A DNA stretch of 64,000 bases from Gammaproteobacteria bacterium (GCA_013150915.1 JAADJE010000031.1:11139-75138), one strand, 5' to 3'; shown: positions 7,898 through 64,000, numbered from the stretch's first letter. Notes: generated by a model from the sequence alone, not told the origin. Program-made: numbers and translations.

Positions 7898-7918
7898 TAA
7901 TTATTAAATAGGGGTGCC

Positions 7919-9012: not shown

Positions 9013-9015
9013 CAG

Positions 9016-12637: not shown

Positions 12638-12661
12638 AGAAATCAGACAGGCACAAAAGAC

Positions 12662-16058: not shown

Positions 16059-16068
16059 GGGGGGCATA

Positions 16069-16560: not shown

Positions 16561-16584
16561 CTGTATGAAGGTATATAAAAACCT

Positions 16585-17190
16585 ATGACATTTGAACAAC
16601 TGGTATTTTATTTTCTCGCATCGGTAGCCGTGATAGCGGCTGGCCTGGTGATTACCGTACGTAACCCGGTACGGGCAGCCTTGTTCCTGATTCTGACATT
16701 TTTTACAGTAGCCGTGATCTGGTTATTACTGGAAGCAGAATTTTTAGCCATTGTGCTGGTGCTGGTATATGTCGGCGCAGTAATGGTGTTGTTCCTGTTT
16801 GTGGTGATGATGCTTGATATTGATACTGATCAGCTACGAGAAGGCTTTGCTGAATACTTGCCCATCGGTGCGACAGTGGCAGTCATCATACTGCTGCAAC
16901 TGGTTATCGTTTTCAGTTTCGGCCCTTTTGATCTAGAACAGATGCCGGCTCCAGCCGCAGCGGCTGTTGACTACAGCAACACACACCAGCTGGGCCTGTT
17001 GCTCTACACATACTATGTTTACCCATTTGAACTGGCGGCAGTTTTACTGCTGCTGGCAATGGTTGCAGCTATTGCTTTGAGCCTGAGAGGGCGCCTGTCT
17101 GCAAAACGGCAGAGACCAGATGCCCAGGTGCGTGTCCGTAAAGAAGACCGTTTACGCATAGTGAAAATGAATGCTGAGAAGCAGGACTGA
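16585..17190 (+). CDS. nuoJ: NADH-quinone oxidoreductase subunit J
   Basis: 201 aa membrane protein, conserved NuoJ N-terminal helices. Confidence 0.9.
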
Positions 17191-17245
17191 CCGGGGTTTA
17201 CTCACATGGGTTTACGGACAAAGGATAAATGACCAGGACTTTATA

Positions 17246-17551
17246 ATGATTGCTTTATCAGACTATTTGATACTAGGCGCCATACTGTTCTCGATTAGTG
17301 TGACCGGGATCTATTTGAACAGGAAAAATGTCATCATCCTGCTAATGTCTATCGAGTTGATGCTGCTCTCAGTCAATCTCAACTTTATTGCCTTTTCGTA
17401 TTATTTGAATGATCTGGCAGGACAGGTCTTTGTGTTTTTTATCCTTACCGTAGCGGCAGCAGAATCTGCAATTGGCCTGGCCATAATCATTGTTCTATTT
17501 CGGCGCAGGCATACCATTAACATCGAAGATTTGGACAGTTTAAAGGGATAG
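17246..17551 (+). CDS. nuoK: NADH-quinone oxidoreductase subunit K
   Basis: 101 aa from the internal ATG ([15 protein letters not shown]…); the longer 17171 ORF start would overlap nuoJ and add a non-conserved leader. Confidence 0.88.
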
Positions 17552-17552
17552 C

Positions 17553-19532: not shown

Positions 19533-19547
19533 TGAGACCGCCCTTAC

Positions 19548-21029: not shown

Positions 21030-21039
21030 CGGTTAGTCC

Positions 21040-48475: not shown

Positions 48476-48623
48476 AAAGTTTATGTAACTTCGCGCCCCT
48501 GTCCCTATAATTGAGCCCAGCGCTATTGGTATGTGTGGGGGCTTACAGCAGCGTTATACGGCGCCCTTAAGCGGGATTAAAACAGAGATAAACAATGTGA
48601 CAATAAGTAATATTCGTTCCGCG

Positions 48624-49727
48624 ATGAGTACACCACTGGCATCAATATTTGGCAGTGGGTTTCTTGTGGTTGTGCCTATCCTGGCCAGCGCAGTTGGTCC
48701 CTATGCTGTGTTCGCCATGGCAGTGGTTGCGATTGTCGCCTTTCTGGTCGGTGGCATTGTCCGACACAATATACTTTGTGCCGAACCTGTACTGGCAAAG
48801 GGGAACAAGTCATTTACTGTAATCGTTGAAAGGCTCTCAGACCTTGCGCTAGTGGGAGCCTACGTGGTTTCGGTCTGCCTTTATATTCACATCCTTTCTA
48901 CTTTTGTCCTCGCTAATTTCGATCTGGATACTGATCGCAATAAAAGCATACTGACCAGCATAATAATAGGCGTTATCACGATTATCGGCCTGTTTGGAGG
49001 GCTAAAGCCACTTGAAAAACTGGAACGATGGGCACTTTATGTGACTATACTGATTCTTGCAGTATTGCTCATTATGTTCGGTATCTATGATGCCAATCAG
49101 TTTCTGGCACAGCGCCAGTTTACTTTTCCTGAAATACCGGAACGTACCGCATGGGAAATTGCAACTATCGTGGCCGGTACGCTCATTGTTGTACAGGGGT
49201 TTGAAACAACACGTTATCTGGGCAAATACTTTGACTCAGCTACGCGTATTCGTGCTTCTCGTTGGTCTCAATATTTTTCACTCAGTGTTTATGTGTTGTT
49301 TGTTGCCCTAGCATTACCCATTGTCCCGGCACTAAACGGAAATTATGCTGACAACAGTCTGATCAAACTGGCTGCGACGGCTTCATTACTTTTACCAATA
49401 CCTCTGATTGTCGCCGCCAGCATGTCGCAATTTTCCGCCGCAGTTGCGGATACCCTGGCAGCGGCTGCCAACATACAGGAAGCAAGCCATCAACGTGTTG
49501 GTACACGCTGGGGATATTTGTTTGTTGGTGTAAGCGCAATGCTGTTGGCCTGGACCAGTTCAACCTTTGAGATTATTGCGCTGGCATCGCGCGCTTTCGC
49601 ATTTTACTACTTGCTACAGTGCCTGGTGGCATTCTCAGTTTGCCGCAACCATCTTGAACGTGCCCGTTTTGTCTTTATTGCGATTATCCTTAGCTTTGTC
49701 CTTATCTTTGCCGTGCCAGCAGGCTGA
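48624..49727 (+). CDS. hypothetical polytopic membrane protein (~10-11 TM helices)
   Basis: Long hydrophobic ORF; start set at MSTPLASIFGSGF… (ORF track starts 31 codons earlier); no recognised family. Confidence 0.5.
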   Translation: MSTPLASIFGSGFLVVVPILASAVGPYAVFAMAVVAIVAFLVGGIVRHNILCAEPVLAKGNKSFTVIVERLSDLALVGAYVVSVCLYIHILSTFVLANFDLDTDRNKSILTSIIIGVITIIGLFGGLKPLEKLERWALYVTILILAVLLIMFGIYDANQFLAQRQFTFPEIPERTAWEIATIVAGTLIVVQGFETTRYLGKYFDSATRIRASRWSQYFSLSVYVLFVALALPIVPALNGNYADNSLIKLAATASLLLPIPLIVAASMSQFSAAVADTLAAAANIQEASHQRVGTRWGYLFVGVSAMLLAWTSSTFEIIALASRAFAFYYLLQCLVAFSVCRNHLERARFVFIAIILSFVLIFAVPAG

Positions 49728-49863: not shown

Positions 49864-50166
49864 GTGGGCATGGTAAATGATCCGGTCTGTGGGATGACAA
49901 TAGAAGTGAGTAATGCGGCGGCGCAGGAAAGGTACCAGGGCACAACCTGGTATTTTTGCTCTGACAGCTGTCACAGTAAATTTCTGGTGGATCCTGCCAG
50001 GTATGCGCAACATGAGACGATGACTGATCCGGTGTGCTACATGGAGGTATCTCTGGATTCGGGTTATCATGCGGAATACGAGGGGAAGACTTATTACTTT
50101 TGCTGTGAGTCTTGTCTCGGTAAGTTCATGAAGGATCCTACGCAATACGGGCGGGCAGATGCATAA
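49864..50166 (+). CDS. tandem YHS-domain (TRASH-like) metal-binding protein
   Basis: Two repeats of DPVCxM…(Y/W)YFCS(D/E)SC(H/L)xKF…DP…Y in 100 aa. Confidence 0.7.
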   Translation: MGMVNDPVCGMTIEVSNAAAQERYQGTTWYFCSDSCHSKFLVDPARYAQHETMTDPVCYMEVSLDSGYHAEYEGKTYYFCCESCLGKFMKDPTQYGRADA

Positions 50167-50318: not shown

Positions 50319-50587
50319 GACTTTGTTACCCGGCATGTGCGGCGTCTGCCGACGGCAGCAGGACTTCCCGGTCTAAAATAATACTCATCATACGGTAAAC
50401 CGGATGTTGGACACACACTCGGATAATGACAAGCCTTGCCGCATGGGTACGTGATACAAATCTGTGAATCAGTTACGATGAAACCTCCTGGCTTGACTGC
50501 CTGGAATTATTGGTAATGATCTGCCCGAATACCAGGGTGGTTAGTTCTAAGACTGTCATTTAGGATACGGAAAAGGGAGAATTGGTG

Positions 50588-51610
50588 ATGCAGCTTGGTA
50601 TGGTCGGTTTGGGACGGATGGGGGCGGCGATGGTTCGCCGCCTAATGCGTGCGGGTCATGAGTGTGTCGTATTCGACCGTAATCCAGAGGCCGTCAGAGA
50701 ACTGGAGGTGGAAGGGGCAAGCGGAGCGGCTGATCTGTCCGATCTCGTGGCCAGAATGGATAAACCCAGTGCCATCTGGATCATGGTGCCTGCAGCCGTG
50801 GTGAACAGTGTCATCAAGGCACTGGGTAAAGAAGTGGCGGCAGGCGATATCCTCATTGATGGCGGAAATTCTTACTATAAAGATGATATTACCCGTGCGG
50901 CACAGCTCAAATCTAGCGGTATTCACTATCTAGATGTCGGCACTAGTGGTGGTGTACTCGGCCTGGAGCGTGGCTACTGCCTGATGATAGGGGGGGAGAC
51001 TGAACCCGTGCAACATCTTACACCGGTATTTTCAGCACTGGCGCCTGGTCTGGGAAAGGTACCGCGTACCCTGGATCATCAGGGTGATCCGACACCGGCC
51101 GAGCAGGGCTACCTGCACTGTGGCACATGTGGTGCGGGACATTTTGTCAAGATGGTTCATAACGGTATCGAATATGCGTTGATGGCTGCTTATGGAGAGG
51201 GTTTCAATATTCTGCAACACGCCAACGTCGGGAAGCACGACACAGATATCGATGCCGAAACTACACCGTTACGTGATCCGCATGCCTTTCGGTATGACAT
51301 TGATATTGGTGCTGTCGCTGAAGTATGGCGGCGTGGCAGCGTTATTTCCTCCTGGTTACTGGACCTTAGTGCGGCTGCATTGCATGATGATCCAAATCTG
51401 GACAATTATCAGGGGCAGGTTTCTGATTCCGGTGAGGGACGCTGGACCAGTATAGCGGCCATTGAATCCGGGGCACCGGCACCGGTACTCAGTACGGCGC
51501 TGTATGAACGCTTTACTTCGCGTGGTGAAAGTGATTTCTCCAACAAGCTGTTGTCTGCCATGCGCTACGGATTTGGTGGTCACCTGGAAAAGAAGAAAGA
51601 ACACTCCTGA
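50588..51610 (+). CDS. gnd: 6-phosphogluconate dehydrogenase (decarboxylating), short Gnd/YqeC-like form
   Basis: N-terminal Rossmann MVGLGRMG; 6PGDH C-terminal helical domain; AAGGGAG RBS ~10 nt before ATG 50588; adjacent to zwf. Confidence 0.8.
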   Translation: MQLGMVGLGRMGAAMVRRLMRAGHECVVFDRNPEAVRELEVEGASGAADLSDLVARMDKPSAIWIMVPAAVVNSVIKALGKEVAAGDILIDGGNSYYKDDITRAAQLKSSGIHYLDVGTSGGVLGLERGYCLMIGGETEPVQHLTPVFSALAPGLGKVPRTLDHQGDPTPAEQGYLHCGTCGAGHFVKMVHNGIEYALMAAYGEGFNILQHANVGKHDTDIDAETTPLRDPHAFRYDIDIGAVAEVWRRGSVISSWLLDLSAAALHDDPNLDNYQGQVSDSGEGRWTSIAAIESGAPAPVLSTALYERFTSRGESDFSNKLLSAMRYGFGGHLEKKKEHS

Positions 51611-51622: not shown

Positions 51623-53185
51623 GTGCCACATACCAAGATAAAGACTGAAACGCTTCCAGCACCCTCCTGCATTATGGTCATTTTTGGTGCTGCCGGAGAT
51701 CTGGCCAAACGCAAGCTGTTTCCCGCACTTTACTATTTGTCTGCGCTGAACCAGCTGCCGGAACATTTTGCAATATTGGGTGTCAGCCGAGAAGACTTCA
51801 GTACTGAAAGTTACCGTGAGCTGATGAATACTGAAAGTCGCGTACACCTCGACGCTGATTATTCAGAGGATGTCTGGAAACGCCTGATCAAATGCTCTTA
51901 CTACCTGCAGGGTGACTTTCGTGATCCGGCAGCGTACCAGGCGCTGGCAGAGAAACTGTGTAAGCTGGACGATCAACACAAAATACCGGGTAATTACCTC
52001 TTTTATATGGCAACACCACCAGCTTTCTTCGGTGATATCGCCGAGCAAATTGCTGCAGCGGGCCTGACAACCGAGCAAGATGGTCATTGGCGTCGTCTGG
52101 TTATCGAAAAACCATTTGGACGCGATCTACAATCTGCCCGCGATCTTAATCGCAGGTTATTAAACGTATTTGATGAACACCAGTTGTATCGAATTGACCA
52201 TTATCTCGGCAAGGAGACCGTACAGAATTTCCTTGCTTTTCGTTTTGCCAACGGCGTCATCGAACCCATCTGGAATCGCCGTTATATCGATCATGTACAA
52301 ATCACTGTGGCCGAGCCTCTGGGTGTTGAAAACCGCGCAAGTTATTACGAAGGCACTGGTGCACTACGGGATATGGTTCCCAATCATTTACTGGCGGTAC
52401 TTGCGATTATCGCCATGGAACCACCGATATCATTCAATGCCGATGAAATCCGCGATGAACAGGCTAAGGTATTACGTGCTATTCAGCCTCTGACACCAGA
52501 AGAAGTCCTTATCCATACAGTGCGAGGCCAGTACGGATCGGGTGTTATGGGTGATGGAACTCACGTAGCGGCTTATCGTCAGGAAGCGGGTGTTGCAAAG
52601 GATTCACAGACTGAAACATTTGTCGCTCTGAGCCTCATGATAGACAGTTGGCGTTGGGCCGGTGTACCTTTTTATCTGCGTACGGGAAAGCGTTTACCTG
52701 GGCGTTTCACTGAGATTATGATCCAGTACAAGCACGCACCGAATGCTGCTTTTAAACGCTCGATTCTAAAGGAAAAACGTGTAGAACCTAATGTTATGGT
52801 ACTGCGCATACAACCCAGCGAAGGAATCAGCCTGGGGATCAATGCCAAGGTACCCGGCCAGGCATTACAGTTGAGCCCAGTGGAAATGAACTTCAGCTAT
52901 GACGATTATTTTGGTAATGAACCCAGCACGGGGTACGAAACATTGATTTATGACTGCATGCAGGGTGACCCCACATTGTTTAAACGTGCAGACATTATCG
53001 AAATAGCCTGGCAGTTAATGGAGCCAATACTCGATATTTGGAGTGCGCTACCACCGCGTGACTTTCCGAACTACGCCGCCGGGGAATGGGGGCCCTCTGA
53101 GGCTGATGATCTGCTCCAGCGTGATGGCCGCTCATGGCGCATATGTACACCGGGCGGATGTGTCCGTAGAACGAACAACGAATAG
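51623..53185 (+). CDS. zwf: glucose-6-phosphate 1-dehydrogenase
   Basis: 520 aa; NADP-binding GAAGDLAKRK, catalytic RIDHYLGKE motif. Confidence 0.92.
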   Translation: MPHTKIKTETLPAPSCIMVIFGAAGDLAKRKLFPALYYLSALNQLPEHFAILGVSREDFSTESYRELMNTESRVHLDADYSEDVWKRLIKCSYYLQGDFRDPAAYQALAEKLCKLDDQHKIPGNYLFYMATPPAFFGDIAEQIAAAGLTTEQDGHWRRLVIEKPFGRDLQSARDLNRRLLNVFDEHQLYRIDHYLGKETVQNFLAFRFANGVIEPIWNRRYIDHVQITVAEPLGVENRASYYEGTGALRDMVPNHLLAVLAIIAMEPPISFNADEIRDEQAKVLRAIQPLTPEEVLIHTVRGQYGSGVMGDGTHVAAYRQEAGVAKDSQTETFVALSLMIDSWRWAGVPFYLRTGKRLPGRFTEIMIQYKHAPNAAFKRSILKEKRVEPNVMVLRIQPSEGISLGINAKVPGQALQLSPVEMNFSYDDYFGNEPSTGYETLIYDCMQGDPTLFKRADIIEIAWQLMEPILDIWSALPPRDFPNYAAGEWGPSEADDLLQRDGRSWRICTPGGCVRRTNNE

Positions 53186-53235: not shown

Positions 53236-54228
53236 TCATTTTTTACTTAAACGGTAGGCCAGTTGCCGTGCGCCCAGTAGCCCCGCCTGCTGATTCAGAA
53301 TAAGTTTTACAGGAATCTTTTTAAGTAATTTTTGCATGGGACTCTTATTGCTGAAAGCCGTCAAAAATGCGGGTGACTGCATGAACGATACATTTTTTGC
53401 CGCGATCCCACCGCCAATATACAGGCCATCATACGGCAGGGTAGTCAGAGCCAGATTTCCGGCTTGTGAACCATATATTGTTGTAAAAAGAGTCATCGCC
53501 TGGGCCGCCAGAGACTGATTATCTTTTTGAGCGGCACGACTAATAGCTACTGGATTGCTGGTTGTCAATTTGCTGTTTAACTCAGGGTCAACCAGCTCCG
53601 GATGCTGTTGTTCGAGGAAATGATAAATATTAACGATCCCCTGACCTGAAAGAACCTTTTCACAGGAGATGCGCGGGTGTTCTTTGCGCAGGTAGCTGGC
53701 AAGCTTAAATTCAATATCAAGGACAGGGGCGTAATCCGCATGCCCGCCTTCCATCCCGTACACCTCATACCGGTTTTGCTGGTAAACCAGCAGCGCTTCC
53801 CCCAGGCCCGTACCGGCACCAATTATGGCCCTGCGGGTACCGGCCTGTGCCTGTCCTTCCTGCAGAACCAGGATGTCATCCTTGTTGAGTACTTCGATGC
53901 CATAACCAATAGCCTTGAAGTCATTAATAATTTTTACGACAGGAATATCGAATTGTGCTGCCAGCTCGAGGTTATTGATTTGCCAGGGGAGGTTGGTTAC
54001 CTGTACAGATTGTTTCTCATCTTCAGTTGCAACGGGACCCGCGACAGCAAGACAGGCGATTTGGGGTTTGGGCTGCCCCTGGAGAAAAACATCCAGTGCC
54101 TGATCGAAGGATTTATATTCCCCGCTTATCAGGCGTTGCTGGTAGATAATATTTAATTGGTGATTGCCGATGTCACAAAGCTGTAACAGGGTCTTTGTGC
54201 CGCCAATATCGGCCGAGAGAATAACCAA
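53236..54228 (-). CDS. glk: glucokinase
   Basis: 330 aa ROK-less Glk family: ADIGGTKTLLQL phosphate-1 motif, overall collinearity with E. coli Glk. Confidence 0.85.
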   Translation of the reverse strand: MVILSADIGGTKTLLQLCDIGNHQLNIIYQQRLISGEYKSFDQALDVFLQGQPKPQIACLAVAGPVATEDEKQSVQVTNLPWQINNLELAAQFDIPVVKIINDFKAIGYGIEVLNKDDILVLQEGQAQAGTRRAIIGAGTGLGEALLVYQQNRYEVYGMEGGHADYAPVLDIEFKLASYLRKEHPRISCEKVLSGQGIVNIYHFLEQQHPELVDPELNSKLTTSNPVAISRAAQKDNQSLAAQAMTLFTTIYGSQAGNLALTTLPYDGLYIGGGIAAKNVSFMQSPAFLTAFSNKSPMQKLLKKIPVKLILNQQAGLLGARQLAYRLSKK

Positions 54229-54471
54229 AACAGTGTACCTCTTGCTGCACTTTCATCCAGAAACCAGAAAAGCCCCCCGCTAGGGATTATACCCTGTATA
54301 AGGATGTTTTCCTGATACATTTGATGTAAATATCTCGGTCAAAACAGGGTTCTTTCTCTTTCCTGTAGCAAGGATCAGCACATTTCTGGCGTTGTTTTTA
54401 GAAGTAATGCAGCAGTCCTTTAACTTTCCAGGTTGATGAGTTGTTCAGGTAGTCGGTACGGGTACAGGCCT

Positions 54472-56865
54472 TCATTCAGGTTCTACGACTTCGATCCGGT
54501 AACTGCCTCGTGTTTTCCCATCTGCCGTGTTCGCTTCGATGGTGAAATGCAACGATTCGCCGATGCCCAGTGTCTTTACCGGCAAGGTGATCCTGTGCAG
54601 GTCAAAACCCGCAGGTGTTGTTTTCACCTCATTGGTATCCGGTGCGTCGCCGACCAGAAATTGTATAGTGGCAGGTTGTGGCAGGCAGATACACAGGGCC
54701 TCGCCCTGGAAAATCGTATCGATGGGCGCCATGGGTGTCCATACCGCGAGTATCGCCTTCGGGCGTTGGCCATCATAGCGCTCCCATACCGTGTCGAGCC
54801 GGTCCACGGGATAGCCCGCAGCGCGAGAATGCGCCAGTTTGATAAATTCCGCGTGGGCCCATACCAGCGGCATCGCCGATCCTGTCGCCTGGCCGGGGTA
54901 CAGTCGCCGTTCGGGGATGGGTTCGGCATCCCAGACCTGCTCCGGGAGCATGCCGCCGCGTCCTGCCATTGCGGCCATGGCACCCAGATAGGGCAGGGGG
55001 TCGTTGCCGGCCAGCAATTCGTAGTGGCCACGCTCCCCTGTGAGCAGCGGCCAGGGGCGACCGTGGCCGGTGCCATTGAAAGCAGAACCATCACGGTGTT
55101 CGCCATAGCCGTCTCCATTGTAGCGGTACCAGGCCGAACCATTCGGCGTCTCCGCCCTGAGCAGGGCATCGACGACCCGGACGCTGTCCCTGATCAATGG
55201 GTCATCGGCTCGCCGTAACCCGAAACGCACCAGCTGTAGAAAGTCAGTGCTGATCTGTTCCGCTGCGGATAACCCGGGATCCTGCAGCCGATTCTTGATG
55301 GGTAACTGCTGGCTCACCGCTTCCTCATCCATAATCGCTTTTGCTGGTGCAGTTCGAATGTAATAGCCGGCTACCCCGTGCTTTCGTGCCAGCGCGGTAT
55401 CGCGCACAACGGTCCATGATTCGATCCGGCTGTTCCAGAAGTCTGCGATGGCCAATGAAGTTTCCCGGTTCTGGCCCTTCAGGAAATCCGCACCGCTGAC
55501 CAGTGCGGCAATACAGATCGCCAGGGTAAAAGTGTTGACTCCTGCATTTTCCTCCCAGCGATCCTGGTCGGAGGCGGGGCCGTTGTGCGCGATGAAGCTA
55601 AGGGCGCGGGATACCATGTCAGCAACCTCGATACCATCCAGCGATCCACGCGCTGCAAGCTCTGCCGCCAGCAACACCGGGAATGCGGCTTCGTCGAGCT
55701 GGGTCCCCTGCCAGTAAGGTTTTCCACCGAGCCACTGGTTCTGGTACCAGTGGCCGTCTTCGAGCTGGGTGGCAATAAGATAACGCAGGATTTCGCGTGC
55801 CTTGTCATCCGCCCCCAGCATTAATAGCGCACCCGCGCTTTCTACCAGGTCGCGTGGCCAGACCAGGTGGTAGCCACCGCGTTCGTTGCGCGTTTCGCCC
55901 CAGGGGATGCTGAGGCTGGCAATCATGGCACCGGTAAAAATCTGATCCTGATGGGTGCGTAGCACCATCGCCGAGATTTTTAATTCATTGAGCAGGGCTT
56001 CGGGCAGATCCAGGTTGAGTGCGCATCGCAGGTCGCAGTTCGAATGCCAGTCGCGCCAGTCGTTGATCTGTTGTTGCCATGGACTGTCAAAGGATCTCGG
56101 CAGGGCGGACAGAGCCACTGTGGCAGCTGATTCCCTGCTGCTGGCAAAGCCGAGCGCCAGTACCGAGTAGCGGGGCAGACCGCCGGTCAGTGCAACATTA
56201 CCGGGACCGGCCTGCTTGTAGCGCCAGTGCATGGCTCCGTTACGATTGAAGTCCTGCCAGCCGTCGCTACCACCGACATAACCGGCACTGACTTCCTGCC
56301 AGGCATCACGCTGGTTGGTGTCCACGGCCGCCAGCGCCAGGCCGAATGGACCCTGTTTCGCCCACAGCACACGGCGGCCTCGGTAGCGCGCTACCGCGGC
56401 CTGGTTGTCATAACCGGTCCCTCCCAGGCGGGGGGCCAGCAGCACATAGGGCCGCAACGATGCGTCACCTTGCAGCCGGCATTCAATCAGTAGCACATCG
56501 CGCTGTGGATCGGGTGTGATGCGGAGTGTCAGCGTGAAACGTGGGTGCCGGTGGATCAGGGTGTAAGCGGGTATGCCGGGCTCGGGCTGGCTGAGGGTAT
56601 AATCATCCAGACGTTTGACCTCTACCCAGAAGCCGGCACCATCGGCGATGATGAAGCCGAGATCGCGGATCTGCGGCAGGTCGACACGTGGATAGTAGAC
56701 CTCATTGATGATACCTCGGCCGAGTGTAAACCACAGGCGTGACGGCCCCAGCGAACACCCCACGGCATTCTTGCGCCCACCGCTCCAGGTCGGTGGGATA
56801 CCTGGTCTGCCGGGTGCATGGCCGGTAACCTCGTAGGACTCAGAAACGAGTGGCAACTCGCTCAT
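54472..56865 (-). CDS. glycoside hydrolase family 15 protein (glucoamylase/trehalase-type)
   Basis: 797 aa; N-terminal beta-sandwich plus (alpha/alpha)6 catalytic domain with GH15 hallmarks VWPRDLVESAGALL and catalytic DRWEENAG; visibly GC-richer than upstream genes. Confidence 0.85.
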   Translation of the reverse strand: MSELPLVSESYEVTGHAPGRPGIPPTWSGGRKNAVGCSLGPSRLWFTLGRGIINEVYYPRVDLPQIRDLGFIIADGAGFWVEVKRLDDYTLSQPEPGIPAYTLIHRHPRFTLTLRITPDPQRDVLLIECRLQGDASLRPYVLLAPRLGGTGYDNQAAVARYRGRRVLWAKQGPFGLALAAVDTNQRDAWQEVSAGYVGGSDGWQDFNRNGAMHWRYKQAGPGNVALTGGLPRYSVLALGFASSRESAATVALSALPRSFDSPWQQQINDWRDWHSNCDLRCALNLDLPEALLNELKISAMVLRTHQDQIFTGAMIASLSIPWGETRNERGGYHLVWPRDLVESAGALLMLGADDKAREILRYLIATQLEDGHWYQNQWLGGKPYWQGTQLDEAAFPVLLAAELAARGSLDGIEVADMVSRALSFIAHNGPASDQDRWEENAGVNTFTLAICIAALVSGADFLKGQNRETSLAIADFWNSRIESWTVVRDTALARKHGVAGYYIRTAPAKAIMDEEAVSQQLPIKNRLQDPGLSAAEQISTDFLQLVRFGLRRADDPLIRDSVRVVDALLRAETPNGSAWYRYNGDGYGEHRDGSAFNGTGHGRPWPLLTGERGHYELLAGNDPLPYLGAMAAMAGRGGMLPEQVWDAEPIPERRLYPGQATGSAMPLVWAHAEFIKLAHSRAAGYPVDRLDTVWERYDGQRPKAILAVWTPMAPIDTIFQGEALCICLPQPATIQFLVGDAPDTNEVKTTPAGFDLHRITLPVKTLGIGESLHFTIEANTADGKTRGSYRIEVVEPE

Positions 56866-56871
56866 GTTAGT

Positions 56872-58239
56872 TCAGGCTAGCCGGCCGAGTAACACCTGTG
56901 CCGCCAGTCCAATGCCCAGGGTAAAGGTGAAGGTGATCCCCAATACCCACTTTACCAGTGGTATCGGCGCGGAACCTGATGCTGTGATAATGGGTTGCTG
57001 ATACATTGGTACGATTATACGCAGATACACCGCCAGTGACAGCACACTGTTGAGTATGGCTATTACAGCAAGCCAGGTGAAGCCTGCCTCAATCGATGCA
57101 CCGAACAACAGAAACTTGCCGACGAAGCCGGCGAGTGGCGGGATACCGGCCAGTGAAAGAAGAAACACCACCATTGCTACACCTATAGCAATATTTTTAC
57201 GCCCGATGCCAGAGAATACATCAAGCGTTCGACCTGCATGCATAACGACAGCAAAGGCACCCAGATTCATTGCGGCGTAGGCGGCAGAAAAAACAATAAT
57301 GGACGTAAATGCGAGTGGGCTCGCCCCCACCGCGACAATACCGATAAGAAAATAACCCGCCTGGGCAACCGACGAATAGGCGAGTAGTCGCACAATATTG
57401 TCTTGCACCAACGCAGCCAGATAGCCATAGGTCATAGTTATCACAGAGACCACAGCAATGACCAGCGGCCAGCCTGTACTCATGGGTAAATCGCGAACCA
57501 CCTGTGTCAGGGCCAGGATTGCACCAATCTTGGGTACTACCGACAGATAAGCGGCTATCGACACGGGCGCACCCTCGTAGGCATCCGGTGCCCAGAAATG
57601 AAATGGCACCAGTGAGGCCTTGTAACCCAGTCCGACGATGACGGCGATCAGGCCAACGGCGGCGACAACCGGTTTTTCTTCAAGGCGGGATAGATCGCTA
57701 AGCAGTGTCGAACCGGTGCCGCCGAACCAGTAACTGAGACCAAAGATCATGATAGCACCGGTGACTGCGGCGAAGACAAAAAATTTCATGGCGGCTTCGG
57801 TGGCACTATCATTACGCGGATAAGCGACCAGGGCAAAGGAACCGAGGCCTGACAGCAATATGCCCAATACGAGCAGCATGCTGTCACCGGCACCGGCTAG
57901 CACCAGGGAACCCAGGGTCACAAAACAGACCAGACTGTAAACAGTACCTTCCCGGTCACTGCCACCAAGTTCTGTACGTGCCAGCAAGACAGACAGTACG
58001 GTCGCGGGCAACAAGATGAGTTTGGCCCAGACACTCAGCATATCTATGCGGAACGTGCCACCGAATATGCTGGTATCCGCGCCAAGCAGGGGCAGGGTCA
58101 TGCCGGTCGCGAGCAGTAGTCCGGTAACTGTAACTGTCAGTGCAATACGGGGCAGGCGCAGCATCTCAGCCACCAGTGCGACGACACCAGTCAGCAGCAC
58201 GATGATCTCAGGGATAATTAAGGCGAGATCACGCTCCAT
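56872..58239 (-). CDS. complex I-like antiporter-type subunit, NuoN/ND2-like (divergent second copy)
   Basis: 455 aa, ~14 TM; FHFWAPDAYEGAP motif; high GC. Confidence 0.8.
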   Translation of the reverse strand: MERDLALIIPEIIVLLTGVVALVAEMLRLPRIALTVTVTGLLLATGMTLPLLGADTSIFGGTFRIDMLSVWAKLILLPATVLSVLLARTELGGSDREGTVYSLVCFVTLGSLVLAGAGDSMLLVLGILLSGLGSFALVAYPRNDSATEAAMKFFVFAAVTGAIMIFGLSYWFGGTGSTLLSDLSRLEEKPVVAAVGLIAVIVGLGYKASLVPFHFWAPDAYEGAPVSIAAYLSVVPKIGAILALTQVVRDLPMSTGWPLVIAVVSVITMTYGYLAALVQDNIVRLLAYSSVAQAGYFLIGIVAVGASPLAFTSIIVFSAAYAAMNLGAFAVVMHAGRTLDVFSGIGRKNIAIGVAMVVFLLSLAGIPPLAGFVGKFLLFGASIEAGFTWLAVIAILNSVLSLAVYLRIIVPMYQQPIITASGSAPIPLVKWVLGITFTFTLGIGLAAQVLLGRLA

Positions 58240-59708
58240 CAGAATTGCAGTGCCGCGGTGGTCTTGTGAATAACATCAAGCACCCAGGCCGGGACGACGC
58301 CCACCGCGACGATCAGTATCAGCAGTGGGCTCAACGCAAGTACTTCACGCACATTCAGATCGGCCATGTTTGTCCACTTTTCACGAGGTTCGCCGAGAAA
58401 CACCTTGCCAATGGCTCTCAGGTACAGGCCCGCAGTAATGACGATACCAAGGATGGCAATAACGGCCACGGGTTCAACCTGCAGTGTCGCCAGGAAGATC
58501 TGGAACTCGGCCGGAAAGTGAGCCAGTCCAGGCAATCCCAATGAAGCAAACGCGGCGAGTACGAAGGACCAACCGAGTATCGGTATTACATTCAGTAACC
58601 CTCCAAACTGATCCATCTCCCGGGTATTGGCGCGATCCTGCAACATGCCAACCAGTAAGAACAATGCACCGGTGACCAGTCCGTGGCTGACCATTTGCAG
58701 GACCGAGCCGTCCAGTGCGGTAGCACGAATCGCTGGATCGGTTGCCAACGCTGCAATCGCCACCCCGATGATGATATAACCCATGTGATTGACCGAGGTA
58801 TAGGCGACCAGGCGTTTGAGATCGCTCTGTGCCAGTGCGGCGAAGGCACCGTAGAGAGCAGCGACTACGCCGAACACCAGGATGACGATCCCGGCGTCAC
58901 GAAAGGCATCCGGTGTCATCTGAAATGCAAAGCGTACCAGACCATAGGTGCCGAATTTCAGCATCACCCCGGCGAGGATCACGCTGCCCGCAGCCGGTGC
59001 CTGGACATGTGCCGCAGGCAGCCATGTGTGAAACGGGAACACCGGCGTCTTGACCGCAAAAGTAATCAGCATCGCTACCAGTGCAAGCATGGCCGCAGTA
59101 CCATTTAATGGTGGGTTGCTGATCCAGTCGCGCATGTCGAAGGTATGTGGGTCGCTACCAAGATATAAGCCGAGAATGGCAAGCAGTAACGGCAGGCTGC
59201 CGAGAAATGTATAGATAAAAAACATCAGCGCTGCGCGTTGACGATCTTCATGTCCCCATTCAGCAATCATGAAGTACATGGCAACCAGCGACACCTCAAA
59301 GAAAACATAGAATAAAATTGCATCCAGCGCGGTGAAGACGCCAATAGAAGCCGTCTCCAGCAATAGCATCAGCGCGACGAAGGCATGAGATTGTTTGCGG
59401 ACCTTGGCAGAATAAATAAAGGTCACGAAGAACAACAGCGCAGTTAGCAGTACCAGAGGCAAACTAATGCCATCCACGCCAACACGGTAGGCAGCGCCAA
59501 TTGAAGGCATCCAGTCGAGCTGTTCAAGCTGGGCAAAGCCTGTCTCGTTAACACCGCGTGACCACATCCTTACCACACCCATGAGTGTCAGCCCGCTGGT
59601 AACGATGCCGATGGTGTGTACGACCTGTACGGGAGCTTTGCGCAAGGTCATAACAAGCAGCGCTCCAAGGAGCGGCAGGAACAGGGTGATGGACACGATG
59701 GGCAGCAT
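58239..59708 (-). CDS. complex I-like antiporter-type subunit, NuoM/ND4-like (divergent second copy)
   Basis: 489 aa; FHTWLPAAHVQAPAAGS motif. Confidence 0.8.
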   Translation of the reverse strand: MLPIVSITLFLPLLGALLVMTLRKAPVQVVHTIGIVTSGLTLMGVVRMWSRGVNETGFAQLEQLDWMPSIGAAYRVGVDGISLPLVLLTALLFFVTFIYSAKVRKQSHAFVALMLLLETASIGVFTALDAILFYVFFEVSLVAMYFMIAEWGHEDRQRAALMFFIYTFLGSLPLLLAILGLYLGSDPHTFDMRDWISNPPLNGTAAMLALVAMLITFAVKTPVFPFHTWLPAAHVQAPAAGSVILAGVMLKFGTYGLVRFAFQMTPDAFRDAGIVILVFGVVAALYGAFAALAQSDLKRLVAYTSVNHMGYIIIGVAIAALATDPAIRATALDGSVLQMVSHGLVTGALFLLVGMLQDRANTREMDQFGGLLNVIPILGWSFVLAAFASLGLPGLAHFPAEFQIFLATLQVEPVAVIAILGIVITAGLYLRAIGKVFLGEPREKWTNMADLNVREVLALSPLLILIVAVGVVPAWVLDVIHKTTAALQF

Positions 59709-59723
59709 TCAGGAGTCTCCTTA

Positions 59724-61553
59724 TCAATAAACCAGTAAAGCCAGCAACAGGGCGGCGAGGATCAGCGCAGTTCCCACGACAGTGATTGCCATTTCACGGT
59801 GAATCAGGCCGCTCTGCAATGAGCGGGCGCGGCTGCCGAGTTCGACCGTGTTGCGCACCAATGAAAATATCAGCCCGTCGATGCCTTGTTCGTCATTGCG
59901 GCGTACGGCTCGACCGATATCGAGTCCAAATCGACCCACTGCAAATACGCCTGCGTACAGGATGCGTTCCAGCCTTTCACAGCTGCGGGCGATGGCGAAT
60001 GCGGGCCGCACCATCAAGTTATCGAAACCGCCGGCAATGGTAAAACCCTGCTGTACCCAGGGTAACAAAGGGCCAAGTAGTCGCCGCGCCGTGAAGAACC
60101 AGCCAAGTATCAAACCACCCACTGCTGCACCCAGCCCGAAAATTTCGGGGGGAAATCGGGTGGGGGTGTTTTCGGGTAGGCGGGTGTTCAGCAAGGTCTC
60201 GATAGCAGGGAAGGCGACACCCAGGATAACGGCCAGTGTGACCAGTCCGGCCAGTCCCGCACCCATCCAGTATAGCCCCACGATCTTGTGGCTCTTGCGG
60301 TCACCATGCCACAGGATGCGCAGCGCTCGGGCCATGTAGGCGCCGGTCAACAGGGTGCCGGCCAGCGCCAGCGGCGCAAGTAATAGCACGTTGGGTGAGG
60401 CCAGCGAGGCGGCAATAATGGCTTCCTTGGAAAAGTAGCCACTCATAGGAGGGATACCGGCCAGCGCCAGTGCTGCCAGTGCATAACCGAAAAATACGCG
60501 TGGTCTATCACGCCCGGCACCTTGCAGATTTACCAGTACCGTGCTGTTACGGCTGTGCTGAAATATACCAGCACCAAGAAACAGGCCACTCTTTATGGTC
60601 GCGTGAGCGATCAGGTGCAGCAGTGCCGCCAGTGGCACACCGGCGCCCACGGCCACCAGCATCAGGCCGTACTGGCTGGAAGTTGATGCGGCGGTCAGGC
60701 GTTTTAGATCACGCTCGCCCAGCGCAATCAGGCCGGTGACCACGGTGGTGACGCCACCGACGAGGCCAATCACCAGTAGCACCTCAGGCGGCAGCATCGG
60801 CGCCACACGGATCAGCAGGATGGCACCAGCCGCCACCAGAGTGGCCGAGTGCAGCAGCGCCGAGACCGGTGTGGGACCGGCCATGGCGCGCTGTAACCAG
60901 TCGTGTAACGGTGTTTGTGCGGACTTGCCCATCGCCGCGACAAGTAAGAAGAACCCGGCCGCAATAGCCGCATTGCCTCCGGTGTTCAGTGTGGTAGCTA
61001 TATCGCTGCTGCCGGCGCTGGCAATAAGAATGAACACCGCGATATAGAGCCCCAGATCGGCGCTGCGGGTAACCAGGAAGGCGCGGGTGGCGGCTGATGT
61101 GACACCCGGTCGGCGGTACCAGAAGCCGATCAACAGATAACTGCTCAGGCCAATAAGTTCCCATGCCGCGAGCAGCAAAATCCAGTCGCCGGCAAGTACC
61201 AGAGTTTGCATGGCCGAGACGAACAGCAGCATGGTGGCGAAGAAACGTACTTTTTCACTGTCCTTTTTCATGTAGCCGACGGCATAAACCAGCACCAGGC
61301 TGCTGACCCCAGCAACCAGGGTTGAAAGCAATGCAGTCAGCGGCGTCGAGATAAGACGCAGTGGCATATCCGGCAGGCCGGGCAAAATCAACTGATTGCC
61401 CTGGCCATTAAAAGCGTCAGCCAGCAAGTACAGACTGGCGAACATACCAACAGCAGCACCCAACAGCGCCAGCGCTGCGGGGAAACGCCGCAGTAGCAGG
61501 ATCAGCACCATCATGGAGAGAGGCGCAAGAATGGCTGCGGCTATGAGGTTCAT
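59724..61553 (-). CDS. complex I-like antiporter-type subunit, NuoL/ND5-like (divergent second copy)
   Basis: 609 aa; NuoL-like helices plus C-terminal extension; conserved GWEL(I/V)GL…SY…IGFW region. Confidence 0.8.
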   Translation of the reverse strand: MNLIAAAILAPLSMMVLILLLRRFPAALALLGAAVGMFASLYLLADAFNGQGNQLILPGLPDMPLRLISTPLTALLSTLVAGVSSLVLVYAVGYMKKDSEKVRFFATMLLFVSAMQTLVLAGDWILLLAAWELIGLSSYLLIGFWYRRPGVTSAATRAFLVTRSADLGLYIAVFILIASAGSSDIATTLNTGGNAAIAAGFFLLVAAMGKSAQTPLHDWLQRAMAGPTPVSALLHSATLVAAGAILLIRVAPMLPPEVLLVIGLVGGVTTVVTGLIALGERDLKRLTAASTSSQYGLMLVAVGAGVPLAALLHLIAHATIKSGLFLGAGIFQHSRNSTVLVNLQGAGRDRPRVFFGYALAALALAGIPPMSGYFSKEAIIAASLASPNVLLLAPLALAGTLLTGAYMARALRILWHGDRKSHKIVGLYWMGAGLAGLVTLAVILGVAFPAIETLLNTRLPENTPTRFPPEIFGLGAAVGGLILGWFFTARRLLGPLLPWVQQGFTIAGGFDNLMVRPAFAIARSCERLERILYAGVFAVGRFGLDIGRAVRRNDEQGIDGLIFSLVRNTVELGSRARSLQSGLIHREMAITVVGTALILAALLLALLVY

Positions 61554-61861
61554 CCTTTCAACTCTGCCGCTTCTTCCATTTCCACGGAGCCTTTGGCGCG
61601 GAAGCGTGCAATGGCTACGCCGAATCCCACCGCCATCTCTATCGCCATCACGGTCATTATGATCAGTACGAACATTTGACCGGCAGGGTTGTCCGGGTGC
61701 AGGTAGCGCCAGAATGCGACCAGGTTGACCATGGCTCCGGCAAGAATCAGTTCTATCCCCATCATGATCATCACCAGATTGGTCTGCGACAGTGCACCAT
61801 AGATGCCGACACCAAACAGCGCGGCGCCAGTGATTAGTGCGAGAAGAAGTTCAATACTCAT
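61550..61861 (-). CDS. complex I-like subunit NuoK/ND4L-like
   Basis: 103 aa, 3 TM; conserved glutamates in TM2/TM3 (MGIELILAG…AIEMAVG). Confidence 0.75.
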   Translation of the reverse strand: MSIELLLALITGAALFGVGIYGALSQTNLVMIMMGIELILAGAMVNLVAFWRYLHPDNPAGQMFVLIIMTVMAIEMAVGFGVAIARFRAKGSVEMEEAAELKG

Positions 61862-62376
61862 TGTTCACGAGTCCTTTTAACAGGTTGTATGGCCACCGCC
61901 GTAGCAGCAATCATGGCGGTAAGAATGGTGATTCCGGCAGTTTCAAAAATCAGCATTGAACGACCCAGCAGTTCAAGGCCCAGATCTATAGTCTGTTGTG
62001 CAGCATCCGGTGAAACGCTGGCCACAGGTCCCCAGTCGACAAATACGGCTACGGCCACGGCGGCCACGAAGGAAACAATTCCGGCGCCTAAGGAGAGGCG
62101 CTTCTGATGAGTCATGTCCATCTCACCAAGTCCGCCGGGATCCATCATGAACATCACCATAAAAATAGCCATGATGCTCATTTCAGTGGCCATCATCATG
62201 ATTTGTAATACGCCGAGGAACTCCGCCTGCATACTCAGAAACATCGCACCAAGAGCCGTCTGAGAGAAAAGCAGAGCCAGCGCAGAACGTACCATCGAAA
62301 ACGTGCGGAAAACAACGATACCGAACCACACTCCGGCGAGTCCGAAGAAACCAATGAAGAACATTTGAGCAGTCAT
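61858..62376 (-). CDS. complex I-like subunit NuoJ/ND6-like
   Basis: 172 aa; N-terminal helices align with nuoJ of the first operon (…SQTALGAMFLSMQAEFLGVLQIMMMATEMSIMAIFMVMFMM…). Confidence 0.7.
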   Translation of the reverse strand: MTAQMFFIGFFGLAGVWFGIVVFRTFSMVRSALALLFSQTALGAMFLSMQAEFLGVLQIMMMATEMSIMAIFMVMFMMDPGGLGEMDMTHQKRLSLGAGIVSFVAAVAVAVFVDWGPVASVSPDAAQQTIDLGLELLGRSMLIFETAGITILTAMIAATAVAIQPVKRTREQ

Positions 62377-62507
62377 TTTACTGGGTACCTCAGTTGAACG
62401 GTTCGTAGTAGTTCACCAATAAAATGAACCGAGGCACAGCTTTTAACAAAGTTGTTGTGTCCATAATGTCAGGCTCATAAATTAGCGGTCAATTGTGGAA
62501 CCCAGGA

Positions 62508-63404
62508 TCAGGGAAACACCAGTACGAGTACACCAACGAGAAGTATATTCAGCAACGCCAGTGGGATGCCCAGCATCCAGCACCATGCCAGCAGGTCTGC
62601 TTCGCGGATGCGTGGCATATAACGCCCGGCCAGCAACATTATCGTGGTAACTGCCAGTATTTTGATTGTGCTCCATGCCCAGGGCGGTAGTAATGGTCCC
62701 TGCCAGCCACCGAGGTAGAAAATTACAGTGGCGGCCGCCAGGGTGATAATCAGCGCCAGGCGTCCCAGCCGGAATACCGCCAGCCGTACGCCGGCATATT
62801 CAGCTTCTACGCCGCCTGCGAGTTCGCCTTTCGATGTAGTTAAATCGAATGGCGGTAGAAATGCCAGTGCCATGGCCGCGATGAAAAACAGGATAAATCC
62901 CAGTGGTTGATAAATAATGTTCCATACACCTGCCTGGGAGACAACGACCTGTGTCGTCAGTAATGATTCGGCACGCATCACGACGGCGGTGATGGGCATA
63001 ACGATTAGCATTGCGTAGGCGATAAGCTGGCCCAGAAAACGCCAGCCACCGATCATGGCATAGGCACCATCCGGACCCCAGCCCGCCATCAGCAGGGCAA
63101 CCAGGACGTAGACCAGCGCCGCATTGATGAACAATGCGCCAGTAGCCATATCTGTGATGATCAGATCTGGAGTTAGCGGCACGACGGCTGCTGCGAGTAT
63201 TGCAGAGATCAACAGCAGAAACGGGGCGACTTCAAAGAAAATCCGGTCGGGTTTGCGCGGTACAATGGATTCCCGCCCCAGCAGTGCGATGCCGGCAAGT
63301 ACCGGTGCGGTCAGCCGAAATCGTCCGCTCACAGTCCAGTCTTCGAGTACTGCGACCAGATACGCACCAACCGCCAGCAACAGCAGCAAAAGAACGGTTG
63401 TCAT
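62508..63404 (-). CDS. complex I-like subunit NuoH/ND1-like (HycD/EchB-like)
   Basis: 298 aa, 8 TM; FDLTTSKGELAGGVEAEYAG corresponds to NuoH FDxxEGESELVAGxxxEYSG loop. Confidence 0.75.
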   Translation of the reverse strand: MTTVLLLLLLAVGAYLVAVLEDWTVSGRFRLTAPVLAGIALLGRESIVPRKPDRIFFEVAPFLLLISAILAAAVVPLTPDLIITDMATGALFINAALVYVLVALLMAGWGPDGAYAMIGGWRFLGQLIAYAMLIVMPITAVVMRAESLLTTQVVVSQAGVWNIIYQPLGFILFFIAAMALAFLPPFDLTTSKGELAGGVEAEYAGVRLAVFRLGRLALIITLAAATVIFYLGGWQGPLLPPWAWSTIKILAVTTIMLLAGRYMPRIREADLLAWCWMLGIPLALLNILLVGVLVLVFP

Positions 63405-64000
63405 TGCCGCACCTCCCAGGGTGATAGATCCAGGGAACTGACCGCCAGCAGTGCGTCGCCCAGCTCCTGCTGTTCGATCAGTGGGTTGATTAGTGCAAGA
63501 TGGTGCGTCGAAGGTGTGTCCAGTTGTGCCGTAGTAACCTTACCCATCTCCAGTGTTAGTCGAAGTCTGGCCACCCCGCGAGGGGTCTCGACTACCGCTT
63601 CGCCTGTTCCCGATATTTCGCCGATAATGGCCGGTACAGGTAACTCTATGGCGCCAGCCGCTTCGATAAGCGCGAGGCTATGTATTATCTCATCCAGGCG
63701 GACATGCAGGCGAGCGAGGGCATCACCTGTCTTTCGACTGACTGTTTTGAACCCTAGTGTAGTACAGACCTTGTCTGCACTGCGTGCATCGTCGCCGATC
63801 CCAGTAGCGCGTGCCACAGGGCCACGCAGTGTGGCATCCGTTGCTAGCAGGCCAACACCTGCCATTCGTGATTTCAGTAAAGGAGTTCGTTGCAATCGTT
63901 TAGTCAGGGTCAATATGGCTGGTTTTAGCGCCACGATCTGTTCCAGGTCGGCATGCTGGAACTTCAATTGTAGAGAGGCGGTGCGTCGCATTAGCCAGTC
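63401..64000 (-). CDS. complex I 49-kDa/NuoD-like subunit, partial (5' end beyond window edge), lacking hydrogenase Ni-binding cysteines
   Basis: C-terminal 196 aa align with NuoD C-terminus (…VETPRGVARL… ~ [10 protein letters not shown]; …TPSTHHLALINPL… ~ [13 protein letters not shown]); no C-terminal CxxC. Confidence 0.7.
   Translation of the reverse strand, partial: DWLMRRTASLQLKFQHADLEQIVALKPAILTLTKRLQRTPLLKSRMAGVGLLATDATLRGPVARATGIGDDARSADKVCTTLGFKTVSRKTGDALARLHVRLDEIIHSLALIEAAGAIELPVPAIIGEISGTGEAVVETPRGVARLRLTLEMGKVTTAQLDTPSTHHLALINPLIEQQELGDALLAVSSLDLSPWEVRQ

Follow-up and report, generated by a model that had tools for sequence, protein, structure and literature searches.

Why does the gene of a predicted storage-glucan hydrolase lie directly behind the last gene of a complex I-like cassette? 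The question is raised by a 64,000-nt stretch of DNA from a Gammaproteobacteria bacterium (GCA_013150915.1, JAADJE010000031.1:11139-75138; in the following, "the window" means this whole stretch), in which a gene for a glycoside hydrolase of family 15 (GH15) follows a nuoN-like gene on the minus strand at a distance of 6 nt. According to the reading we favour, with a probability of roughly 0.65 for the explanation as a whole, a mobile partial nuo cassette has, in Thiogranum-related, sulfur-oxidising Gammaproteobacteria, acquired the GH15 gene as its ninth and terminal cistron, and the product of this gene is a catalytically competent exo-alpha-glucosidase of the bacterial glucoamylase/glucodextranase type that would serve reserve mobilisation. 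The novelty lies in the architecture of the operon, in which the gene of a storage-glucan hydrolase is attached to the end of a partial nuo cassette by a fixed 6-nt junction.

The full cassette consists of eight genes, namely nuoA, a gene encoding a fusion of NuoB-like, HMBD and NuoD-like parts, and nuoH, J, K, L, M and N. It occupies positions 8-9053 of locus L001 and 1123-9994 of locus L106 (related loci carry handles beginning with L), and the window holds a part of it at 56872-64000 on the minus strand. The features at its end are the following:

56872-58239, minus strand: nuoN-like gene, 455 aa, closing the core cassette and ending in TGA at 56874-56872
56866-56871, minus strand: spacer between nuoN and GH15, 6 nt, ACTAAC on the coding strand
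54472-56865, minus strand: GH15 gene, 797 aa, ATG at 56865, ninth and terminal cistron of the inferred operon

The plus strand reads CAT at 56863-56865, GTTAGT at 56866-56871 and TCA at 56872-56874, and the 6-nt gap between the nuoN-like stop codon and the GH15 ATG is just as an earlier note on this DNA had described it, with coordinates and gene calls in order. The ATG at 56865 is the earliest start codon of its open reading frame (ORF), protein conservation across the four other lineages that were aligned begins at this codon, and it is the true start of GH15. The upstream nuo-like genes in the window each overlap or nearly abut the next one. GH15 itself has the attributes of an operon member, i.e. 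the strand of the nuoN-like gene, a very short gap and no Shine-Dalgarno sequence of its own, and a terminator would be too large for the 6 nt between the two genes.

Relatives of this arrangement were sought in three ways: by a genome scan with GH15, by a metagenome scan with NuoN and through the contigs of closer GH15 homologues. Among the 80 loci of the GH15-seeded scan, nuo-like genes flank GH15 only in L001, which belongs to the species of the window (98% identity); among the 22 loci of the NuoN-seeded scan, GH15 directly follows nuoN only in L082 (99% identity). Both same-species copies carry the TGA-6 nt-ATG junction. The contigs of closer GH15 homologues added four more lineages with the identical junction, and we reject the reading of a species-specific accident. 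Two further lineages have genes inserted behind nuoN:

L106: GH15 95%, NuoN 97%; GH15 6 nt after nuoN, then glk, zwf, gnd
L108: GH15 89%, NuoN 82%; GH15 6 nt after nuoN, then genes for an MFS protein and a Na/H exchanger
L109: GH15 88%, NuoN 82%; GH15 6 nt after nuoN, then a gene for a Na/H exchanger
L114: GH15 78%, NuoN 69%; GH15 6 nt after nuoN, then the gene for UvrB
L107 (Thiogranum longum): GH15 83%; a disulfide-reductase gene inserted after nuoN; then DUF2231, zwf and transaldolase genes
L100: GH15 78%; four genes inserted after nuoN; then a CusB-type gene

Across the five lineages with the tight junction (window, L106, L108, L109 and L114) the spacer is fixed at 6 nt in length while its letters vary (ACTAAC, ACAGCC, GCAATC, GCAACC, ACCGCC), the nuoN stop codon is TGA in 5/5, and nuoN and GH15 share a reading frame, with just the TGA and two sense codons between them. 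The other gaps of the operon differ by lineage (H-J 131/-1/-4; L-M 15/12/49; M-N -1/13), and the coding ends that flank the junction carry indels. The GC content of the hosts spans 49% to 70%. Since the window has 48.6% GC and the L114 host 70%, the junction has outlasted a large compositional divergence; in L114 all genes, the flanking UvrB gene included, have a GC content at third codon positions (GC3) of ~0.92. Conservation of the neighbourhood, which the earlier note had proposed as a check, has two sides: the junction is kept in four further lineages, but most carriers of the cassette lack GH15.

A Shine-Dalgarno-like sequence before the GH15 ATG is missing in all five of these lineages. 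The argument that the gap leaves no room for a promoter or a Shine-Dalgarno sequence is nevertheless invalid as it was put, since either signal can sit inside nuoN, and one promoter-like pair does occur there:

57014-57042, minus strand: promoter-like pair inside nuoN, CTGTCA-17-TATAAT, 10/12 matches

Codon composition ties GH15 to the cassette as well. The seven nuo-like genes and GH15 together have a mean GC3 of 0.603, compared with 0.473 ± 0.043 for the 36 other genes of the window (Mann-Whitney p = 1.4e-5), and GH15 is the most extreme of all (0.670, z = +4.5). The neighbouring glk, zwf and gnd genes average 0.494, like the background (p = 0.40; glk 0.50), and the canonical nuo membrane genes in the window range from 0.48 to 0.56. 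The resulting compositional island spans 54472-64000, with its edge at the GH15 stop codon. Because the raised GC3 is shared by GH15 and the cassette and not by glk, zwf and gnd, GH15 goes by its composition with the nuo-like cassette rather than with the genes of the pentose-phosphate pathway. Inheritance of GH15 and the cassette as one unit, probably by co-transfer, would agree with this.

The conserved junction, the missing Shine-Dalgarno sequence, the lack of a conserved promoter and the shared GC3 together make co-transcription of GH15 with the complex I-like genes, as originally predicted, the best reading of the locus, and both co-transcription and translational coupling are well-supported inferences. 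GH15 would be transcribed from the cassette promoter within a polycistronic mRNA. As GH15 lacks a Shine-Dalgarno sequence, its translation is expected to depend on a restart after nuoN, with ribosomes that end at the nuoN TGA resuming 6 nt further on.

What, then, does the ninth gene encode? The GH15 protein carries the domains Glucodextran_N (PF09137, 1.1e-80, residues 17-274) and Glyco_hydro_15 (PF00723, 7.7e-27, residues 303-678). It matches TIGR01535 (glucan 1,4-alpha-glucosidase) with 585 bits over model positions 1-662/662; TIGR01577, the oligosaccharide-amylase model, reaches 66 bits (cutoff 820.7) and residues 238-482 only. The only solved structures matched by its sequence are 1ULV (5.9e-108), the glucodextranase of Arthrobacter globiformis, and 1LF6 (2.6e-103), the glucoamylase of Thermoanaerobacterium thermosaccharolyticum, with 31-32% identity over the full length. 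Residues E438 (in DRWEEN) and E642 (in LPEQVWD) align to 1ULV chain positions 430 and 628, which we take to be the catalytic Glu residues of glucodextranase; both catalytic glutamates are retained with respect to 1LF6 and 1ULV and are invariant among 33 GH15 homologues. The AlphaFold model (predicted template modelling score, pTM, 0.85) begins with a beta-sandwich (14-241), continues with an (alpha/alpha)6 barrel (244-697) and has a beta domain at its C-terminus (706-794), and Foldseek aligned it to 1UG9 (E = 4.7e-49, query TM 0.79) and 1LF6 (E = 7e-45, target TM 0.87). An N-terminal beta-sandwich followed by an (alpha/alpha)6 barrel is the domain order of GH15 as well as of 1LF6, 1ULV and 1UG9. 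The extra C-terminal beta domain aligns to the longer glucodextranase (1ULV/1UG9), the last domain of which is missing from GH15.

The previous label "glucoamylase/trehalase" stands in its first half, as glucoamylase/glucodextranase, by model scores, solved-structure matches and fold. A trehalase identity was rejected, given the TIGR01577 score far below its cutoff and structural neighbours that are glucodextranase and glucoamylase. No signal peptide was detected by N-terminal hydropathy (maximum over 11 residues 0.69 within the first 50 residues), in line with the earlier impression that none was obvious. Because the N-terminus has no hydrophobic segment, we take the protein to be cytoplasmic, and the lack of a signal peptide sets it apart from 1LF6 and 1ULV. 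Homologues are named glucoamylase or GH15 protein in their source records. The enzyme as such is ordinary: in the nearest cultured relative, Thiogranum longum (83%), it is already annotated as a GH15 glucoamylase-type hydrolase.

Beyond GH15 lie three genes of glucose metabolism, separated from it by a spacer with several features of its own:

54229-54471, minus strand: intergenic region between GH15 and glk, 243 nt
~54242-54420, minus strand: lineage-specific insertion of ~180 nt, present in the window and L001, not in L106
54286-54274, minus strand: terminator-like GC-rich hairpin with T-run, within the insertion
53236-54228, minus strand: glk, glucokinase (PF02685, 6.3e-98; TIGR00749, 273 bits, cutoff 225)
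51623-53185, plus strand: zwf, glucose-6-phosphate dehydrogenase (G6PD_N and G6PD_C), convergent with glk
50582-51610, plus strand: gnd, short-type decarboxylating 6-phosphogluconate dehydrogenase (TIGR00872, 408 bits, cutoff 297), directly upstream of zwf

All three genes are identified above family thresholds. They had been placed immediately downstream of GH15, and both the adjacency and the identities are right; transcriptionally downstream, however, holds for glk alone. Since zwf and gnd lie on the opposite strand and converge on glk, they cannot share the GH15 transcript, and glk lies past a 243-nt gap with a terminator-like hairpin. Judged by this layout, GH15-glk-zwf-gnd is a real neighbourhood and not a single transcription unit. 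In L106 the GH15-glk gap measures 64 nt. The hairpin in the insertion is followed by a Shine-Dalgarno sequence of glk (AAGAGG), and a TATAAT box lies beside the hairpin. A structured RNA or known RNA family was rejected for both the junction and the GH15-glk spacer: Rfam gave no match at E <= 1 at either place, and the spacer folds no better than its shuffles (z = -0.8). No second copy of the ~180-nt insertion was found within the window.

The proposed chain of glucose release, phosphorylation and entry into the oxidative pentose-phosphate pathway is coherent and is backed by recurrent linkages of GH15 in other genomes, where it is found with zwf, glk, gnd, GlgP, MalQ, GH57 and phosphoketolase. 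For example, GH15 adjoins VTT-glk-zwf-gnd-GlgP-MalQ-GH57 in L111, and genes for enolase, acetate kinase (ackA), phosphoketolase and GlgP in L115. Elsewhere in Proteobacteria its usual neighbour is zwf, which lies within 10 kb of GH15 in 25/90 loci and directly upstream on the same strand, at 6-96 nt, in 11 more distant loci. These zwf-GH15 pairs, which occur in Beta-, Gamma- and Alphaproteobacteria and may include gnd and glk, involve the same GH15 family (55-65% identity, ~790 aa) and the same logic of glucose release feeding the oxidative pentose-phosphate pathway. They differ from the window, in which zwf and gnd are convergent and not co-transcribed with GH15, the latter apparently being driven from the nuo-like operon. 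The link of GH15 to zwf, glk and gnd is thus a widespread proteobacterial theme and not new.

The context in L111 and L115 and the widespread zwf linkage point to a role of GH15 in intracellular alpha-glucan breakdown, with glucose passing into the oxidative pentose-phosphate or the phosphoketolase route. GH15 would free glucose from stored alpha-glucan (glycogen or maltodextrin), Glk would phosphorylate it, and Zwf and Gnd would oxidise it to NAD(P)H and ribulose-5-P. Induction of the membrane cassette, for which ionic, metal or energy stress is a plausible cause, would then bring about the mobilisation of reserves, and in such a situation a fast supply of NAD(P)H or carbon skeletons from glycogen would make sense. 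Inducers of the cassette should, if so, also induce glycogen breakdown in these bacteria.

When was GH15 added to the cassette? In neighbour-joining trees, which carry no support values and serve for coarse pattern only, every nuo-linked GH15 falls into one clade of 14 sequences (at least 76% identity to the window protein), with nuo-linked members on both basal branches. In the tree of NuoM and NuoN, cassettes linked to GH15 do not group together but are interspersed with unlinked ones, and L114 branches near the base. The simplest reading would be a single capture of GH15 behind nuoN early in the clade, followed by repeated loss or rearrangement; the alternative is a transfer of the nine-gene unit. 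By its distribution, GH15 is a clade-restricted, later add-on to a mobile cassette and not a core component. The suspicion that GH15 might be a later insertion not conserved in relatives is therefore half borne out, as the addition is restricted to a clade, yet the junction is kept within it. A second GH15 (85% identical) occurs on L110 (DRJJ01000344.1) of the HyVt-414 metagenome-assembled genome, the same assembly to which L001 (DRJJ01000037.1) belongs. It is not beside nuo genes and is followed by genes for a Na+/H+ exchanger, Usp, DUF202, DedA/VTT and a two-component system; it would be either a paralogue or derived from a co-binned related strain.

Several observations weigh against the operon reading favoured here. 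In 19 of the other nuo-like metagenomic loci, nuoN is the final gene of the cassette and GH15 does not lie in its vicinity (10 kb of downstream sequence in eight, <1.5 kb in five), and an eight-gene cassette that likewise ends at nuoN and lacks GH15 is found on Marinobacter-type contigs and on plasmid p1 of Paracoccus aerodenitrificans (L119, NZ_CP115780.1, 11636-20505); given these carriers, GH15 is not needed by the cassette. Seven GH15 of the same clade (L002, L003, L110-L113 and L115) are not beside nuo genes. The inserted gene in L107 leaves gaps of 217 nt and 72 nt at the junction, and two of the four inserted genes in L100 lie on the opposite strand; owing to these insertions the tight coupling of nuoN and GH15 is dispensable, and the fixed gap could partly reflect plain inheritance without selection. 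In addition, the TIGR01535 score stays under the equivalog cutoff (585 vs 741.9 bits), which is why GH15 is filed only as glucoamylase-type GH15 and not as a proven glucan 1,4-alpha-glucosidase. Much of this would be expected under neutral hitch-hiking, in which one GH15 landed behind nuoN and came to be transcribed by read-through, with no functional relation to the cassette and a junction preserved by descent: the majority of core-cassette carriers lack GH15, half of the GH15 clade is unlinked to nuo, insertions at the junction are tolerated, and zwf is the ancestral, widespread partner of GH15. Exact spacing that is kept from 49% to 70% GC despite indels at the coding ends and reshuffled downstream genes is harder to reconcile with mere descent, as is the presence of a GH65 gene just upstream of nuoA in the GH15-less L096, and we consider hitch-hiking unlikely, if still to be reckoned with. 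Expression of GH15 independent of the nuo-like genes, from a promoter of its own in the 3' end of nuoN (57042-57014), is improbable. The site in question is the top sigma-70-like match in the 8.5 kb scanned (10/12) and lies ~150 nt before the ATG. On the other hand, 8 such sites were observed in this stretch against 7.2 expected from shuffles, and the TATAAT is kept in the window and L106 and missing in L108, L109 and L114, all of which keep the junction; the corresponding stretch of L108 or L114 (plus strand) has no comparable site. With the -10 element lost in three lineages and a site frequency like that of shuffles, a conserved promoter inside nuoN was rejected, and the site is probably non-functional; a separate transcript without a Shine-Dalgarno sequence would, moreover, translate poorly.

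Two further explanations concern the substrate and the form of the product. GH15 might cleave a compatible solute or disaccharide (trehalose, kojibiose or a glucosylglycerol-type compound) as part of an osmo- or ion-adaptation island together with a "marine adaptation" nuo cassette. In favour of this view, published reports count the partial nuo operon among the adaptations to marine or salt conditions (PMC3314556, PMC6676996), trehalases exist within the GH15 family (PMC11327188), genes for Na+/H+ exchangers, Usp, DedA/VTT, fatty-acid cis-trans isomerase (CTI), cyclopropane-fatty-acid (CFA) synthase and phospholipase D (PLD) recur near the cassette and GH15, and GH65 lies beside nuoA in L096. 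The full-length sequence and fold similarity to glucoamylase and glucodextranase, the weak match to the oligosaccharide-amylase model and the clustering of clade members with GlgP, MalQ and GH57 speak for alpha-glucan instead and leave the solute explanation doubtful. Much less probable still is read-through of the TGA, which would yield a NuoN-GH15 fusion and tether the hydrolase to the membrane complex. GH15 is indeed in frame behind the TGA and two sense codons in 5/5 lineages; however, an in-frame gap has a prior of 1/3 and could have been inherited once, and no fused protein occurs among the best 120 GH15 homologues (514-830 aa). NuoN has ~14 predicted membrane helices, which, given the topology of complex I, would place its C-terminus on the periplasmic side, whereas GH15 lacks export features.

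Returning to the reading of GH15 as the ninth cistron, the nature of the cassette is a larger question than the placement of GH15, and the cassette is the more intriguing object of the two. Upstream of the nuoN-like gene, the window contains the following members:

58239-59708, minus strand: NuoM-like (TIGR01972, 502 bits, cutoff 264; 38% to canonical NuoM)
59724-61553, minus strand: NuoL-like, antiporter-type (Proton_antipo_M and Proton_antipo_N; 36% to canonical NuoL)
61550-61861, minus strand: NuoK-like (Oxidored_q2, 3.5e-19)
61858-62376, minus strand: NuoJ-like (Oxidored_q3, 2.1e-18), after a 131-nt gap behind NuoH-like
62508-63404, minus strand: NuoH-like (NADHdh, 1.1e-55; 29% to canonical NuoH), 4-nt overlap with the fusion gene
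63401-64000, minus strand: 3' part of the fusion gene, cut by the window end (Complex1_49kDa, 7.5e-16), second gene of the cassette

All seven membrane subunits of the cassette (A, H, J, K, L, M and N) have Pfam matches. The NuoN-like protein matches Proton_antipo_M (2.9e-52), and its top NCBIfam models are NuoN, all under cutoff, with 32% identity to canonical NuoN; the NuoH-like protein scores below every NCBIfam NuoH cutoff. The ORF list shows no NuoI gene between NuoH-like and NuoJ-like. A canonical complex I operon, with genes assigned by size and BLAST, lies elsewhere in the window at ~8482-22488 on the plus strand (nuoB, C, D, E, F, G, H, I, J, (K), L, M, N), and its members share 29-38% identity with the nuo-like paralogues.

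The most unusual component is the fusion protein, the full-length orthologue of which in L001 has 706 aa and four HMBD repeats (PF19335, 3.2e-57); across relatives the protein measures 570-850 aa or more and carries 1-4 repeats. Its N-terminal domain is a weak match to NuoB, and its C-terminal domain has a predicted NuoD fold (Foldseek probability 1.00, target TM ~0.68) at 16-21% identity. The NuoB-like residues 1-140, where the ligands of cluster N2 are missing, contain no cysteine that is conserved among 46 homologues, and the invariant cysteines are confined to the HMBD repeats. The quinone-binding His and Tyr of NuoD appear, as read by eye, to be replaced. The complete cassettes L106, L114, L116 and L119 lack NuoE, F and G, and genes for NuoC and NuoI are absent from the cassette. 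With a NuoB-like/HMBD/NuoD-like fusion that has no Fe-S ligands, the cassette cannot, as judged from its gene products, be a conventional redox-driven pump, nor is it a redox complex I of any described type. The expression "complex I-like module" thus fits the membrane subunits A, H and J-N, and does not extend to NuoC, E, F, G and I or to the Fe-S cysteines, all of which are missing, nor to the HMBD repeats that are present. The source records annotate the fusion gene as "Ni,Fe-hydrogenase III large subunit" or "heavy metal-binding domain-containing protein", and we found no literature report of a complex I-like enzyme bearing HMBD domains or of a function of the fusion gene. The membrane arm of 11-subunit complex I-like enzymes (NDH-1, Fpo, Nuo11) has the same subunits A, H, J, K, L, M and N as the cassette, which differs from Nuo11 in the absence of NuoC, NuoI and the NuoB cysteines for cluster N2. 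With Mrp antiporters it shares the antiporter-like subunits, but retains homologues of NuoH, NuoA, NuoB and NuoD.

A more speculative proposal, which we regard as having little chance of being right, treats GH15 as a functional accessory of an undescribed mobile, Fe-S-free complex I-like machine, the NuoB/NuoD head of which carries 1-4 heavy-metal-binding domains. The "quinone" site may then be repurposed, e.g. to handle metals or ions, with the antiporter-like subunits either powering this activity or being powered by it. When metal, ionic or redox stress induces the machine, glucose release from glycogen may be hard-wired to follow by translational coupling, feeding NADPH production through Glk, Zwf and Gnd. 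In a stronger form of this proposal, GH15 would physically bind the complex. The gene inserted at the Thiogranum longum junction, an NAD(P)H-dependent disulfide reductase of the class-I flavoprotein type, lies between nuoN and GH15 at 8576-9928 of SMFX01000001.1; its product is nearest to glutathione reductase, MerA and lipoamide dehydrogenase, under every cutoff. Further downstream in the same genome, at a distance of 5-9 kb (17905-21168), lie genes for a MerR regulator and for a CopA-type ATPase that contains YHS and HMBD domains.

The cassette itself is found in a wide range of hosts. It resides on conjugative or mobilizable plasmids of marine Alphaproteobacteria (Paracoccus, Sulfitobacter) and of Rubrobacter (hits H1-H12); the plasmid of L119 is conjugative and carries the cassette beside transposases and a heavy-metal P-type ATPase. 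As it is plasmid-borne and flanked by transposases, the cassette is cargo of mobile elements. A cluster of the order nuoA-hypothetical-nuoHJKLMN has been reported as a marine-adaptation "partial nuo operon" in Salinispora, marine Streptomyces and Kocuria; this partial NDH-1 operon is horizontally acquired, and pumping of Na+ or H+ was proposed without experiments (PMC3314556, PMC6676996). The cassette of the window clade has the identical gene order, is mobile and forms a second copy beside a complete nuo operon. The likeness to these actinomycete clusters rests on gene order, and full-length homologues of the fusion protein are encoded on plasmids of Rubrobacter (Actinobacteria). In contrast to the cassette studied here, those reports mention no glycoside hydrolase as a ninth gene, and a NuoB-like/HMBD/NuoD-like fusion is not recognised in their "hypothetical" gene; our literature search returned nothing on a linkage of GH15 and nuo. 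The cassette has been cited as "marine adaptation" for over ten years without experiment, and the junction with GH15 gives a starting point for learning how it is regulated and what it does.

The surroundings of the cassette vary. On Marinobacter-type contigs, the gene past nuoN encodes a convergent PF27187 membrane protein. In the window, a membrane protein of this type (APC_Aq_097) is encoded at 48531-49727 on the plus strand, recognised by a gene order shared with L106 and without a Pfam hit of its own, and a YHS-domain protein at 49864-50166 on the plus strand, beyond gnd, likewise by L106 gene order and with weak direct hits. GH15, glk, zwf, gnd and the YHS gene lie between nuoN and the PF27187-type gene; the position of the latter as the convergent neighbour of nuoN on Marinobacter-type contigs suggests that it marks the original end of the cassette neighbourhood. 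On the other side, the GH65 hydrolase/phosphorylase gene of L096 (26-2590, plus strand, 854 aa) shares the strand of nuoA and ends 175 nt before it. GH65 and GH15 belong to the same (alpha/alpha)6 clan, and the GH65 gene represents a second, independent link of an alpha-glucoside enzyme to the cassette. A general enrichment of sugar genes around GH15-less cassettes was not seen, this GH65 being the only one among 84 flanking ORFs; their flanks are mixed, with response regulators, CFA synthase, ammonium transporters and PLD.

Upstream of nuoA, genes of membrane-lipid remodelling are often found (L081, 71-2287; L106, 1-967; L083, 13-1215; L090, 929-2281). They encode fatty-acid cis-trans isomerase, a PLD/cardiolipin-synthase-like protein and cyclopropane-fatty-acid synthase, and their position hints at a membrane-stress context. 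Considering all neighbours of the cassette and of GH15, i.e. genes for Na+/H+ exchangers, Usp, DedA/VTT, CTI, CFA synthase, PLD, YHS, CopA/MerR and CusB, the gene content suggests a setting of membrane, ion or metal stress.

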